The position numbers were made by a program, and so were the translations under genes. A DNA stretch of 7,365 nt from a virus (lineage: Duplodnaviria > Heunggongvirae > Uroviricota > Caudoviricetes). Location: IMG/VR virus record IMGVR_UViG_2734482780_000004; one strand, given 5' to 3'. The notes beneath the pieces are model-generated. The model was not told the origin of the DNA, ran no database searches, and was given only the letters and a program-made list of their open reading frames with translations. Shown piece by piece: positions 2,410-7,365 of the stretch; the stretch's first letter is position 1; the number at the start of each line of letters is the position of its first letter.

Positions 2410-2688
2410 TCAGCAGTTCGTCATCAGGGCGTCACCGCCACCACCGGTGGCCTTGCTGCGGCGCTGCTGGGTCAGACTTTCGGTGTGGTCGAGACTGTTT
2501 TTCAGGCGGGTGAATGCCTGGCTGGTTTCATCCGCCCTGTCAGTCACCTCCTGCTTAAGTGCGGAAAAGGCGGTTTCCATCTCAGCGAGGCGCTGCTCAG
2601 TGGCGCTCAGTTTTTCCTGCACATGTTCAGCAACAGCGGTCACCGCTTCATGCACATCATTCAGACGGGCGTCATCGCTGGCCTGTTT
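2410..2688 (-). pseudogene. O: Capsid scaffold gene O, 3' remnant only (last 92 codons plus stop)
   Basis: The C-terminal 92 aa of the 264-aa track ORF 2410..3204 ([92 protein letters not shown]) match the gpO C-terminus as I recall it. Upstream of about 2689 the same frame is unrelated to gpO and is antisense to a terminase-like coding sequence. No gpO N-terminal sequence is present anywhere in the window. Confidence 0.7.
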
Positions 2689-3180
2689 GCCCCCATCAGC
2701 CGTGTCGAAATGAGCCTGGAAGCGCGGCTGACCCAGCTCATCATCAAACCGCAGAAAACCGGCGGTGACTTCAAGGAAATTGACCTGCTGGGACGCCAGA
2801 TTGAACGACTGGCGCGGGTCAACCGCTACAGTCAGACCGGCAACGAGGCAGACCTTAATCCGAACGTCGCTAACCGCAACAAAGGCGGGCGTCGCAAACC
2901 GAAAAAGAATTTTTTCAGTGACGAAGCCATCGAAAAGCTGGAGCAGATTTTCTTTGAGCAGTCTTTCGACTATCAGTTGCACTGGTATCGCGCCGGGCTT
3001 GAGCACCGCATCCGCGATATACTGAAATCCCGCCAGATTGGCGCAACGTTTTATTTTTCCCGCGAGGCGCTGCTGCGCGCCCTGAAAACCGGCCATAACC
3101 AGATTTTTCTGTCGGCCAGTAAAACGCAGGCGTATGTGTTCCGCGAATACATCATCGCCTTTGCCCGTCTGGCTGAATGA
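2689..3180 (+). pseudogene. P: Terminase large (ATPase) subunit gene P, N-proximal fragment of about 160 codons, ended by an out-of-context stop
   Basis: Plus-strand frame reads [44 protein letters not shown] ... [58 protein letters not shown]. It contains a P-loop-like KSRQIGAT motif typical of phage terminase ATPase N-domains. The fragment is far too short for the roughly 590-aa protein I recall. The frame upstream of about 2689 is antisense to the O remnant. Confidence 0.6.
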
Positions 3181-4159: not shown

Positions 4160-4354
4160 TTATTTGTTCATTCGAATATAATTCAATAGCATCTTGATGA
4201 CCTGAGCGAGTTCTACGCTAGTTGCCTGCGCAACCAGCTTATCGGTATATATGTCAACTTCGCGTGAACTAAGATCATTGTTTTGTGCCAGAGTGGTAAT
4301 CTGCCTCGTCCAGCGTTTAACCCACTCATTATCAAAAGAAATGGAATTTTGCAT
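4160..4354 (-). CDS. Possible small protein (64 aa), head-to-head with the first cargo gene; coding status uncertain
   Basis: Track ORF MQNSISFDNEWVKRWTRQITTLAQNNDLSSREVDIYTDKLVAQATSVELAQVIKMLLNYIRMNK. Its ATG (4354..4352) shares the palindromic GCATGT with the plus-strand ATG at 4353. There is no convincing Shine-Dalgarno, and the region also carries plus-strand promoter-like hexamers. Confidence 0.25.
   Translation of the reverse strand: MQNSISFDNEWVKRWTRQITTLAQNNDLSSREVDIYTDKLVAQATSVELAQVIKMLLNYIRMNK
4177..4182 (+). promoter_or_regulatory. Candidate -10 element (TATAAT) for the cargo operon
   Basis: Perfect TATAAT at 4177-4182 in an AT-rich stretch about 170 nt upstream of the 4353 start. 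The -35 match is poor (ATCATT at 4154-4159). An alternative is TTTACA (4123-4128), 17-nt spacer, TGATAC. Confidence 0.25.
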
Positions 4355-4790
4355 GTCGAAAAATCTCGATTTATTTAACCAACAAACGGCGGAAATCTTT
4401 GCAGTACTATGGGAAAATTTTCCCGTACCACAGGTGATTAACTACGACAAATTTAACGCCGCGCTACCTGATGACTACTTTGACCAACTTAACTCACCAG
4501 AAATGAAAGCGTTAAATCAGTTGCGTAGTGTGGTTGAAGGTACATTCAATTTTCTCTGTGAAAACGGGTACATTCAGTACAACACAGACCATCAGTCGTA
4601 TTTTTACGATGTTCGACTTACTGAAAAAGCGCTCACAGTTCTTAACAAAAAACCCGAGGTGCTTGGTGGAAATGAAACGATGGGGGATAAAGTGATCAGT
4701 GCGGTGAAAGATGGGACTCCTGGGGTCATTGCCGGTGTGATTACAAATCTGCTGACTCACGGCGTTAATCTGGTTGCGTCAGTGTCATAG
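4353..4790 (+). CDS. Hypothetical protein, 145 aa, with a Gly-rich hydrophobic C-terminal tail
   Basis: ORF MSKNLDLFNQQTAEIFAVLWENFPVPQVINYDKFNAALPDDYFDQ ... AVKDGTPGVIAGVITNLLTHGVNLVASVS, ending at TAG 4788-4790. An alternative ATG at 4341 would add MEFC. The extended track start at 4251 is rejected because its N-terminal 30 codons are Cys/Arg-rich and antisense-like. Shine-Dalgarno is weak (GGAA 4343-4346). The gene is AT-rich, unlike the phage core. Confidence 0.6.
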   Translation: MSKNLDLFNQQTAEIFAVLWENFPVPQVINYDKFNAALPDDYFDQLNSPEMKALNQLRSVVEGTFNFLCENGYIQYNTDHQSYFYDVRLTEKALTVLNKKPEVLGGNETMGDKVISAVKDGTPGVIAGVITNLLTHGVNLVASVS

Positions 4791-4952
4791 CCAACGCCCC
4801 AAAGAGACTCATTGTCCCTCGTCACACTACTTGCTTTTAGTTCTGACGAGATTAAATCCGCTCACAGTGTTTACTGCGGAAAAGTTGCGTTATTATCCAT
4901 ATGATTTAACATCTTGGATTCATGTTAATTCACAGTTTAATAAGGATATGGA

Positions 4953-6044
4953 ATGGGTTACGAAATTGATTTTCTAGCTGTTGGCGAAAAAAAAAGCGGC
5001 GATGCGATCTGCATCAGATGGGGAAACCTACATGGTTCAAGAGATGAACAAAAAGTTGTCGTTATTGATGCAGGATATGCCAGCACCGGAGAACAAGTCA
5101 TTGAGCATATTGAAAAATACTACCGCACAAAAACTATTGACTTGCTTATCTCCACACACCCCGATGGTGACCACGTCGGTGGACTTACATCTGTTCTAGA
5201 AAATGCAGAAGTAAAAGAGTTTTGGATTCATAAGCCTTGGGAACATAATCAAGGTCTCGCAAGTGAGTTTGCAGATGGCAGGATAACTGATGCCAGTATT
5301 GCAAATCGAATGAAAGAAAACTTACAAAAAGCTTATGACGCTGTCAAATTAGCGGAAAAAAAAGGAATTGAAATAAAAGAGCCTTTTCAAGGAATGACCT
5401 GGGATAATGCTACTCTGGTTGTTATCGGGCCAACCCAATCTTACTATGAGACTCTAATACCTGATTTCGCAAGAATGCCCAAAAAAGCTGAGGATACAGC
5501 TGGATTTGAAGTACTAAAAGCAGTCTTTGAGTCTGTAGTTGAAAAAACGAAGAAATTTATTGATTACGTTGCTGAATGGTTTACTGATGAAGGTATTGAT
5601 AATGAAGATACCACCTCGGCACAAAATAACTCAAGTGTCATTTTGAAACTTGAGATTGATGGAAGAACGTTAGTGTTCACTGGCGATGCTGGTATAACAG
5701 CCTTAGATCAAGCCTCCCAATACATTAATAAAGAATCATTAAGATTCATTCAAGTACCTCATCATGGTAGCCGGAGAAATGTAGGCCCTGATGTTCTCGA
5801 TAAACTTGTTGGTAACATTGTAAATGAAGGCGAAAAAAGGGAGATAACCGCATTTGTATCATGTGCCCCAGGTTCAGATAAACATCCCCATCAAGCTGTA
5901 ATTAATGCCTTTACTCGACGAGGAGCGAAAGTTATCGCCACCGAGGGGCTTGGTAAGTACCATTTTTATAATGCTCCTGAAAGGGCAGGATGGAAAACAG
6001 CCACTCCACGATCATACATTAGTAACTATAGAACCGAAGAATAA
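4953..6044 (+). CDS. Metallo-beta-lactamase-fold metal-dependent hydrolase (ComEC-like subfamily by motifs), 363 aa; possible nuclease
   Basis: Strong Shine-Dalgarno AAGGA (4942-4946) 6 nt before ATG 4953. MBL-fold motif series in order: VVVIDAGY, STHPDGDHVGG (HxHxDH position, with Asp replacing the second His), VFTGDAG, VPHHGS. A roughly 140-aa acidic/Lys-rich insertion sits between the N- and C-terminal halves of the fold. Stop is TAA 6042-6044. Confidence 0.85.
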   Translation: MGYEIDFLAVGEKKSGDAICIRWGNLHGSRDEQKVVVIDAGYASTGEQVIEHIEKYYRTKTIDLLISTHPDGDHVGGLTSVLENAEVKEFWIHKPWEHNQGLASEFADGRITDASIANRMKENLQKAYDAVKLAEKKGIEIKEPFQGMTWDNATLVVIGPTQSYYETLIPDFARMPKKAEDTAGFEVLKAVFESVVEKTKKFIDYVAEWFTDEGIDNEDTTSAQNNSSVILKLEIDGRTLVFTGDAGITALDQASQYINKESLRFIQVPHHGSRRNVGPDVLDKLVGNIVNEGEKREITAFVSCAPGSDKHPHQAVINAFTRRGAKVIATEGLGKYHFYNAPERAGWKTATPRSYISNYRTEE

Positions 6045-6049
6045 TTCAA

Positions 6050-6069
6050 AAGCTGCCTTACGGCAGCTT
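6050..6069. terminator. Hairpin between the convergent hydrolase and membrane-protein genes
   Basis: AAGCTGCC (6050-6057), loop TTAC, GGCAGCTT (6062-6069), starting 6 nt after the hydrolase stop and overlapping the last codons of the minus-strand gene. There is no long T-run on either side, so terminator function is inferred. Confidence 0.45.
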
Positions 6070-6690
6070 ATTATTAACAGCATTTACTCTATATATTATG
6101 TATCTTATTTGTTTAATATATGAGACAACAAACAAAATAGCAAAAACCGCCAACGTTATTTTAGATAAGCCATATGTCTCGCCAGTAAACCGTCCTACAA
6201 CGCACAATGTCGCCAAAAGAATAATTGACATTGAAAATATCGTCCTATACATATTCGCAATCTCTTGCAAAGTTTCAATTTTTCCATCCACACCACATGC
6301 TGACACATAATCTTTATAAGGAGCAAACTTAATCAAACGCGATAGTTTTAAAAAAGGTTCCAATACGATAGAACCAATCCGGCCAATGACTAAGCCAACA
6401 AAATAATAGAGGACAACATTTTTTATTAAATCATCGCCAGATAAAACGATATTCGTCATTCTCTCAAGAAGATAAATAAAAAGAGCACCTGGAAAAAGAT
6501 TATTAAATATATTATATGACGATATTTTTTCCCATAAACCATCCATACCAATCACCTTACTACAGTTTAAATCAGAGATCATTTTCATTGAAAAATACAT
6601 ATATAGCAAGAAATCTATAGCGATTCTGACATCCAACCTGAGTCTATCAGTAGTTAATCTCTTCAGAAAAGAGTGCATAACGAAAACCAA
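6058..6690 (-). CDS. Multi-pass membrane protein (about 4 predicted TM helices), 162-210 aa depending on start
   Basis: Track ORF with four hydrophobic segments: LFPGALFIYLL, VVLYYFVGLVIGRIGSIVL, IFSMSIILLATLCVVGRF, ITLAVFAILFVVSYI. The track start at 6690 is TTG; the first ATG is at 6678 with no Shine-Dalgarno. The ATG at 6546 (MDGLWEK) has a good AGGTGAT Shine-Dalgarno (6557-6551). The frame is open across 48 AT-rich codons upstream of 6546, which mildly favours the longer form. Confidence 0.6.
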   Translation of the reverse strand: MVFVMHSFLKRLTTDRLRLDVRIAIDFLLYMYFSMKMISDLNCSKVIGMDGLWEKISSYNIFNNLFPGALFIYLLERMTNIVLSGDDLIKNVVLYYFVGLVIGRIGSIVLEPFLKLSRLIKFAPYKDYVSACGVDGKIETLQEIANMYRTIFSMSIILLATLCVVGRFTGETYGLSKITLAVFAILFVVSYIKQIRYIIYRVNAVNNKLP

Positions 6691-6794
6691 TCACAGGAAA
6701 TCGGCTATGTAAATTTTCGACCGTCGTATATCAATGGTACACCACGCCCCCCACGCTTACATTACTTCTGTGTGATGCCATACTGAGCGAGGTC

Positions 6795-6821
6795 TATATA
6801 AATACTAGTAATTTATCACAA
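6795..6821 (-). promoter_or_regulatory. Candidate sigma70 promoter for the membrane-protein gene
   Basis: On the minus strand, TTGTGA (6821..6816), a 15-nt spacer, then TATATA (6800..6795). The alternative is a 17-nt spacer with TATAGA. It lies about 100 nt upstream of the ORF start. Confidence 0.3.
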
Positions 6822-6840
6822 ACCTGATTTGATCAGCCTC

Positions 6841-6985
6841 GCGATGGCACAAATGCAAGCGGTTTTAACGGACTTCCGTTTCTTTGCTGACGATTTGGTA
6901 TTCTCAGACCGTGTTTTAATGCACCTCTGAGCGCCCTCACGACCGCCGGATCATTCCATTCGATTACCCGTCATCAAATTGATTC
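6841..6985. repeat. Direct repeat copy 1: degenerate, frameshifted duplicate of part of the flanking gene
   Basis: Positions 6859-6985 align with 7191-7320 at about 90% identity by hand alignment (gcggttttaacggacttccgtttctttgctgacgatttgg...). Weaker similarity extends to about 6841 and 7172. In a shifted minus-strand frame copy 1 encodes RVIEWNDPAVVRALRGALKHGLRIPNRQQRNGSPLKPLAFVPSRG, closed immediately upstream by stop codons. Confidence 0.8.
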
Positions 6986-7365
6986 CACTCTGTTATAGTT
7001 GAATATCCCGGCCACTCATCAGCGACCGGATACGTGAATTTTTTCCCGTCATAATTTACGGTTGCCCCACGCGCCAGCGACTCAAGCTCCCATCGCTGAG
7101 GTCTGATACCGTTCTGAGCAAGATCAACGCGAATACGGGTAATTTGCAATCGCTCCGACCTGGTCAGCCTGGCTGATGGCGCTATTTCATGCGGTTTTAA
7201 CGGACTTCCGTTTCTTTGCTGACGATTTGGTGTTCTCAGTCCGCATTTTAATGCACCTCTGAGCGCCCTCACAACCTCCGGGTCACTCCATTCGATAACA
7301 CCGTCATCAACCAGATTAAGCACTGCTGCGGCGTGTTCAGAAGGTGTGGGAGCCGGTAACGAAGT
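6964..7365 (-). CDS. Phage protein of unknown identity, 3' part only (at least 133 codons; N-terminus beyond window end)
   Basis: The minus-strand frame is open from the window end (TSLPAPTPSEHAAAV, then LNLVDDGVIEWSDPEVVRALRGALKCGLRTPNRQQRNGSPLKPHEIAPSA ... TITEWNQFDDG) to stop TAA at 6966..6964. The track start at 7323 is only an internal GTG. Orientation and position fit the distal end of the P2 early/replication operon, but I cannot assign it to gene A or a neighbour from memory. Confidence 0.5.
   Translation of the reverse strand, partial: TSLPAPTPSEHAAAVLNLVDDGVIEWSDPEVVRALRGALKCGLRTPNRQQRNGSPLKPHEIAPSARLTRSERLQITRIRVDLAQNGIRPQRWELESLARGATVNYDGKKFTYPVADEWPGYSTITEWNQFDDG
7172..7320. repeat. 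Direct repeat copy 2: in-frame coding copy inside the flanking gene
   Basis: Partner of the 6841-6985 repeat. It encodes residues NLVDDGVIEWSDPEVVRALRGALKCGLRTPNRQQRNGSPLKPHEIAPSA of the minus-strand gene. Confidence 0.8.

Follow-up and report, generated by a model that had tools for sequence, protein, structure and literature searches.

The window, by which we mean the whole 7,365-nt stretch of DNA analysed here, is a portion of a P2-like (Peduovirus) prophage. The genes for the small terminase subunit and the major capsid protein are followed by the remains of a scaffold gene, also on the minus strand, and of terminase and portal genes, then by a cargo island at about 4350–6550 and finally by the 3′ part of the gene that flanks the island (Table 1). 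This flanking gene is about 91% identical in nucleotide sequence to P2 gene A, and likewise to 74 other phage records (Peduovirus A genes), and its RefSeq label in Escherichia coli genomes is replication endonuclease. By homology and annotation it is gpA, the endonuclease that nicks the P2 origin. In the intact O25b:H4 prophage L003, which has a full gpA of 2301 nt, the gene order is portal, three cargo genes, relic and gpA. The relic, a second and disrupted copy of the gpA 3′ end lying between gpA and the cargo, is the subject of this report.

Compared with L003, the window prophage carries two internal deletions, of 904 bp and 1679 bp (L003 positions 5604–6507 and 6998–8676), with junctions at window positions 2687–2690 and 3169–3176 and junction overlaps of 4 nt and 8 nt, respectively. 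The deletions take out the N terminus of gpO, the O/P promoter region, most of gpP and the N terminus of gpQ. Both are absent from all complete E. coli genomes, IMG/VR contigs and metagenome contigs that have this cargo. This copy of the prophage should therefore be packaging-defective, with its candidate defence cargo still intact.

Rousset et al. 2022 (PMC9122126) define the region between gpA and gpQ in P2-like phages as a cos-proximal defence hotspot, and the window locus, with variable cargo flanked by gpA on one side and the portal gene gpQ on the other and lying beside cos, falls under that definition. P2 itself carries orf91, tin and old between gpA and cos/gpQ; its orf91 start overlaps the gpA stop as ATGA. 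On the basis of family matches, the cargo of the window is a candidate PDC-M48 defence system. The product of the metallo-beta-lactamase-fold gene is labelled ComEC/Rec2 family by PGAP. The membrane-protein open reading frame, when delimited mechanically, begins at TTG 6690 (210 aa), and PADLOC and PGAP start it at ATG 6546 (162 aa). The PDC-M48A match covers residues 49–207 of the long form; the extra 48 codons (6547–6690), which overlap the end of the relic, are probably not translated. A spacer of 417 bp, most of it relic, separates gpA from the first cargo gene.

Table 1 Coordinates of genes, repeat units and junction features in the window
Feature	Position	Strand	Remarks
Small terminase subunit gene	531–1274	minus	
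Major capsid gene	1278–2351	minus	
Third cargo ORF, 145 aa	4353–4790	plus	No family match
PDC-M48B-like metallo-beta-lactamase-fold gene (cargo)	4953–6044	plus	PADLOC E=1.1e-100; Pfam Lactamase_B
PDC-M48A-like membrane protein gene (cargo)	6058–6546	minus	PADLOC E=1.5e-50; PGAP in L003
Relic B′, heavily decayed half of second copy	6655–6829	minus	About 62% identical to B-true
Relic A′, well-kept half of second copy	6830–6984	minus	88–89% identical to A-true
Nearly undecayed core within A′	6859–6940	minus	1/80 private bases; 41-nt run identical to A-true
Junction and new gpA tail	6964–6984	minus	...TEW, then NQFDDG and stop, in place of canonical ...MEWT and stop
gpA 3′ part, P2-type replication endonuclease	6964–7365	minus	Runs off right window end; P2 gene A homology, RefSeq annotation
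True functional copy	6985–7317	minus	333 nt = 111 codons, NLVDDG...STITEW
B-true	6985–7160	minus	Part of functional copy
A-true	7161–7317	minus	Part of functional copy

The first-pass annotation had described a frameshifted duplicate of the 3′ coding end of the flanking gene at the island boundary, and this description fits the evidence. The repeat is real and far above chance: 6843–6967 and 7175–7299 align without gaps over 125 nt at 89% identity and a spacing of 332, and with two 1-nt indels the alignment extends to 6830–6984 and 7161–7317. The copy within the minus-strand gene (copy 2) encodes NLVDDGVIEWSDPEVVRALRGALKCGLRTPNRQQRNGSPLKP, and the copy beyond the end of gpA (copy 1) goes on in another frame as VIEWNDPAVVRALRGALKHGLRIPNRQQRNGSPLKP, both translations having been quoted correctly. 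The original coordinates lay within about 15–30 nt of the limits of the well-conserved part, but they understated the extent of the duplicate, as the more diverged half (B′, 62% identity) had been missed. That half came to light past copy 1 on alignment of the window with L004, the locus of E. coli PC6. It pairs 6652–6829 with 6985–7160 at 62% identity, with z=11.8 (alignment score 17 versus 1.9 ± 1.3, maximum 8, in 500 shuffles); other segments of the window reached a maximum score of 7, versus 17 for 6652–6829. The lower limit of B′ is uncertain by about 15 nt. In tblastn searches, the match of A′ to gpA is 81% across 42 aa, in a frame that is shifted, and that of B′ is 33% across 92 aa in yet another frame, interrupted by four stop codons (E=3.6e-10). 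Homology of the window gene to canonical gpA (L010 and P2) reaches position 6984. The second copy repeats gpA head to tail over its entire final 111 sense codons, not over the module of roughly 45 aa proposed at first.

A candidate promoter for the membrane-protein gene had also been placed just beyond the repeat. The sequence there is B′, the more decayed half of the duplicate, and neither a consensus scan nor a lenient scan found a convincing promoter. Within the relic, neither scan found any promoter, and the lenient matches (8/12) at 6609–6581 and 6650–6623 are weak and lie outside the relic.

The junction that created the second copy can be placed to the base. Homology between the window and L010 breaks off at 6984, directly after the EW codons, and the second copy begins immediately past 6985, the end of the true unit (...GAG TGG A/AT CAA TTT GAT GAC GG..., with the slash at the junction), with microhomology of ≤1 nt. 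Canonical gpA (P2, L010 and L011) ends in ...ADEWPGFSTVMEWT followed by a stop; its Thr codon and stop are missing at the junction. With these removed, gpA reads six codons (NQFDDG) into the second copy and ends as ...EWNQFDDG, with its stop at 6964–6966. This TAA (6966–6964) is made by a 1-nt deletion that turns GGT GTT into GG- GTA A; the deleted base sits within a 3-nt run, with no long homopolymer. Stopping six codons into the copy would leave gpA with only a harmless tail that is 5 aa longer. A natural two-module gpA and a programmed frameshift that extends the protein were both considered and rejected: homologues have a single matched stretch, and no slippery heptamer of the X XXY YYZ type was seen at GAC GGG TAA.

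Across the surveyed gpA alleles the tail is constant through ...ADEWPGF and then takes at least 12 alternative endings, among them STVMEWT, SLPI, WHQFE, STVMARI, TMDH, VD and LQTEIVFGINKLSLS, each followed by a stop. The usual cargo junctions therefore lie in the last 1–9 codons of gpA, the extreme C terminus of which evidently tolerates replacement, and the duplication junction falls within this zone. The alternative tails (L010–L084, window equivalent 6985–7010) are 1–17 residues long, and the hotspot boundary falls inside coding sequence.

Of 5426 complete E. coli genomes, 23 contain the relic, 21 of them at 100% identity and two at 99.4%; they come from humans, dogs, cats, pigs and cattle in different countries. 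The same arrangement occurs in two metagenome contigs. Because the same sequence recurs in 23 complete genomes and in IMG/VR and metagenome contigs, the frameshift is genuine and not a sequencing error. The two-copy state is nonetheless rare: about 1490 of the E. coli genomes bear gpA and only these 23 bear the relic, with a single copy in about 1470. Among the closest 80 gpA loci in IMG/VR, two copies were found in only five, all identical to the window; one copy was found in 75 of 75 matching phage records, and the P2-like loci surveyed outside this lineage that have one copy come to about 150 in all. A conserved 17-mer, sought twice at a spacing of 300–330 nt in IMG/VR and JGI metagenomes, recovered only this lineage. 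All gpA-like representatives showed a single matched stretch, and no two-module protein occurred among 63 representative hits; a search of 5.8 billion proteins returned only fragments of ≤195 aa and is uninformative on long forms. Its confinement to one cargo lineage makes the two-copy state a single derived event rather than an ancestral two-module architecture. Some database proteins (P0064, P0076 and P0078) combine the gpA C-terminal unit with a PF10743 domain in one short open reading frame; at other gpA–cargo junctions, read-through or fusion may have given rise to such gene calls.

Relatives of the cargo locate the relic with respect to its neighbours. In E. coli PC6 (L004), a cargo that is 71% identical follows gpA directly, with a gap of 116 bp and no duplication. 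The distance from the relic to the PDC-M48A-like gene is about the same as that from the intact gpA end to this gene in L004, which suggests that the relic is the gpA end that originally adjoined the PDC-M48 cargo. L004 and L090–L095 all carry their cargo in the same hotspot, have no relic and have gpA proteins that are 36–97% identical in amino acids. One PDC-M48-like cargo relative is found in Huaxiibacter chinensis, and in L090–L093 the membrane gene and gpA stand about 1 kb further apart.

The locus of E. coli LR-25 (L099) differs from the window in a pattern that bears on how the relic travels. Its cargo, relic and B-true are 98.3–100% identical to those of the window, the portal side differs by 3.1% and the rest of gpA by 2–3.5%, and A-true differs by 12.7%. 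This pattern indicates that B-true, the relic and the cargo move between backbones as a block by homologous recombination, with crossovers inside gpA. The divergent patch itself, about 157 nt at the equivalent of 7161–7317 and set in flanking gpA that differs by about 2%, is a short mosaic or gene-conversion tract, and its limits nearly match those of the well-kept part of the relic. It is a third allele, which rules out that the A-true of LR-25 is a copy of A′ (relic-to-gene conversion). The proposed link between the duplicate and the island boundary accordingly holds in two respects: the junction lies in the usual cargo-junction zone, and the relic is co-transferred with the cargo.

The reading frame of the relic is broken by the 1-nt deletion six codons in, by a further change of frame between A′ and B′ and by four in-frame stops, and RefSeq has no annotation for it ('none'). 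Judged by its reading frames, the relic is a pseudogene fragment with no intact frame, and it is presumably non-functional. Its decay is uneven. Relative to functional alleles, A′ is 85–91% identical in nucleotides and B′ 60–68%; in homology to P2-type gpA, A′ is placed at 84–91% and B′ at about 62%, and B′ with its stops repaired is 47–55% identical in amino acids to the canonical protein. In functional alleles, conservation does not differ between the A and B halves (about 90% for either half; 41–42% variable columns). Private bases, which are absent from all 63 distinct alleles, number 13/155 in A′ and 51/175 in B′. The central 80 nt (6860–6939) contain just one, versus 63 in 250 positions elsewhere (Fisher p=7e-8). 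Substitutions in B′ are biased from GC to AT (35 to 15). The codon changes between A′ and A-true, of which 8 are nonsynonymous and 4 synonymous, rule out coding-type divergence between the copies.

The 41-nt run at 6859–6899, in which the core is identical to A-true, recurs in just one allele out of 75 others, and so rare a shared run points to sequence exchange between the two copies or to their common descent. No single allele matches the core in full (best, 77/80). The swapped A-true patch of LR-25 shows that exchange in this region involves tracts about 150 nt long. We consider gene conversion the best explanation of the core, which would be a patch in a relic that is old and neutrally decaying everywhere else, as the pattern of private bases would suggest.

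On balance, we favour the view that the relic is a non-functional pseudogene copy of gpA that arose once, most probably through an imprecise swap of cargo. A single non-homologous head-to-tail junction would have made the duplicate. The recipient phage would have retained its own gpA to the penultimate codon, that is, to the usual hotspot boundary, and the incoming PDC-M48 DNA would have started 333 nt too early, within the gpA of the donor. The copy beyond the new stop would be left untranslated and has decayed through frameshifts, stops and GC-to-AT drift, with 80–100 nt of its core probably kept allele-like by gene conversion with functional gpA copies. B-true, the relic and the cargo now travel as a unit among P2-like backbones by homologous recombination inside gpA. 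Two observations favour a swap, a junction that lies where cargo boundaries usually lie and a relic that is linked to the cargo, and they agree with the second of two alternatives raised by the first-pass annotation, a recombination scar from cargo exchange. The donor itself is absent from the collections searched: no donor gpA allele was found in the 5426 E. coli genomes (best, 90.5–91%) or in the 80 IMG/VR loci (best, 91%), peptides specific to the relic recovered only the same relic contigs from IMG/VR, and the repaired B′ peptide in tblastn against 50,697 phages reached at best 47–55%, in every case against canonical P2-type sequences. The gpA genes of distant phages with the same cargo (L094, L095 and L004) were rejected as the source of B′, to which they are no closer than canonical gpA is. 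As no donor allele resembling the relic came to light, the swap is something we infer rather than demonstrate.

It is possible, at an appreciably lower probability, that the last 333 nt of gpA were duplicated in tandem within one phage, by slippage or unequal exchange, and that the gene was then truncated by a 1-nt deletion, after which the distal copy decayed. A short-lived gpA with a repeated C-terminal domain would have existed as a derived state, close to the first of the two earlier alternatives. Such an origin would account for a unit of exactly 111 codons in frame, for the 41-nt haplotype that A′ and A-true share with 1 of 75 other alleles and for the failure to find a foreign allele, and the position of the relic relative to the cargo is also as it predicts. 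The in-frame unit and the shared haplotype count against the swap in that they fit duplication in place equally well. That the unit ends at the normal cargo junction, one codon before the stop, would be a coincidence under duplication in place, whereas a swap predicts it. Several states of A′ depart from A-true and agree with other alleles, CACGGTCTG of L076 being one example, and the searches yielded no intermediate with an intact double module. Either way, B′ has diverged by 38% versus about 5% for the core, so that extra processes are needed in any case. Under both histories the relic is a non-functional scar, the only visible effects of which are the 5-aa extension of gpA and the 417-bp spacer.

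The contrast between the core, with 1/80 private bases, and the remaining relic, with about 25% (p=7e-8), could also mean that the core of copy 1 is a cis element under selection: a protein-binding site, a regulatory or transcript element of PDC-M48, or a homology arm. A perfect 14-bp palindrome, AACGGACTTCCGTT, lies in both copies, at 6867–6880 (inside the 41-nt run) and 7199–7212, and also speaks for such an element. Yet the palindrome is broken in the functional alleles of LR-25 and L004, which read AACGGGCTTCCGTT, and distant gpA genes next to the same cargo family do not conserve it. The cargo relatives L004 and L090–L095 do without the relic altogether, and LR-25 has a substitution within the core. 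No Rfam family matched the relic at E≤1, its RNA folding did not differ significantly from that of shuffled sequences (z −0.9 to −1.35) and no promoter was found in it. Moreover, gpA would be destroyed by misaligned recombination with A′. We therefore regard a functional core as improbable, and its more specific form, in which selection rather than gene conversion keeps 6859–6940 with AACGGACTTCCGTT as a gpA-derived cis element of the PDC-M48 system or the phage (a binding site or decoy for replication sensing) or as a portable homology arm for cargo mobility, as slightly less probable again. Together with a T-rich tract, the palindrome resembles a terminator on the plus strand in both copies, antisense to gpA. 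For the A-true mRNA (7165–7314, minus strand), none of 200 shuffles folds as well (z=−2.9), which may be chance; its counterpart in the relic has z=−1.2.

Duplicated rolling-circle origins, with two nick sites in direct repeat, have been used experimentally in phiX174- and M13-type replicons. The present locus resembles them in having a direct repeat in and beside the gene for a rolling-circle initiator that contains its own origin, and differs from them in that the relic repeat has no nick site. The P2 nick, at position 29892 of the P2 record, corresponds to window position 7406, about 41 bp past the end of the window and 89 bp upstream of the start of the unit (7317). As the nick site lies outside the duplicated unit, the origin nick was not duplicated, and a duplicated P2 origin, considered as an explanation of the repeat, was rejected because the repeat lacks the A-protein nick site.

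The in-frame, head-to-tail layout could in principle descend from an ancestral gpA with two tandem C-terminal modules that was truncated here, as first proposed. We consider this very improbable. One copy is all that P2 has, and the same holds for 75 phage records, for 75 of the 80 IMG/VR loci, for about 1470 E. coli genomes, for the distant gpA genes of L094 and L095 and for all gpA-like representatives; the two-copy state is confined to one cargo lineage. An artefact of sequencing or assembly, be it a homopolymer error or a collapsed or expanded repeat, has a negligible chance of explaining a sequence that 21 complete genomes share without a difference, that two others have at 99.4% identity, with hosts and countries that differ, and that recurs in independent IMG/VR and metagenome contigs; the copies differ at 11–12% of positions, so they cannot have been duplicated in assembly.

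P2/P4 defence loci commonly contain small intergenic pseudogene fragments, some of them resembling core genes, which have been read as remnants of intense recombination (NAR 2026, PMC13586616). The relic is like these fragments in being short, intergenic, homologous to gpA and disrupted in frame, and in lying beside intact candidate defence genes. The published account is an aggregate one; here, unlike there, the anatomy of a fragment is resolved, with an exact copy of 111 codons and a junction at the penultimate codon, together with a changed end of gpA, decay that is uneven and spares a core, and co-transfer with PDC-M48. The locus also conforms to the gpA–gpQ (old/tin) hotspot of P2 (PMC9122126) in its position, its candidate defence cargo and the probable part of homologous recombination in its flanks in exchange; that description mentions no duplicated gpA ends, and here one swap would have been imprecise by 333 nt on the side of gpA. 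As in partial tandem gene duplication with concerted evolution, the copies stand head to tail, the distal copy is inactive and a patch is kept similar. Unlike in an ordinary partial tandem duplication, the junction lies at the boundary of mobile cargo, and the functional partner can be replaced, as in LR-25.

We therefore present the locus as a base-resolved example of cargo exchange at the gpA–gpQ defence hotspot of P2, in which one junction would have been non-homologous and misplaced by 333 nt, and in which the later spread by homologous recombination dragged along the scar and the distal segment of gpA. Annotators should label the relic a gpA pseudogene fragment and take it for neither regulatory DNA nor a protein module. 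New biology would follow only if the preserved core proves functional. The relic is otherwise an ordinary, if well-resolved, example of the intergenic pseudogene fragments already reported, and it supports the view that the intergenic 'pseudogenes' of P2 hotspots are recombination debris.
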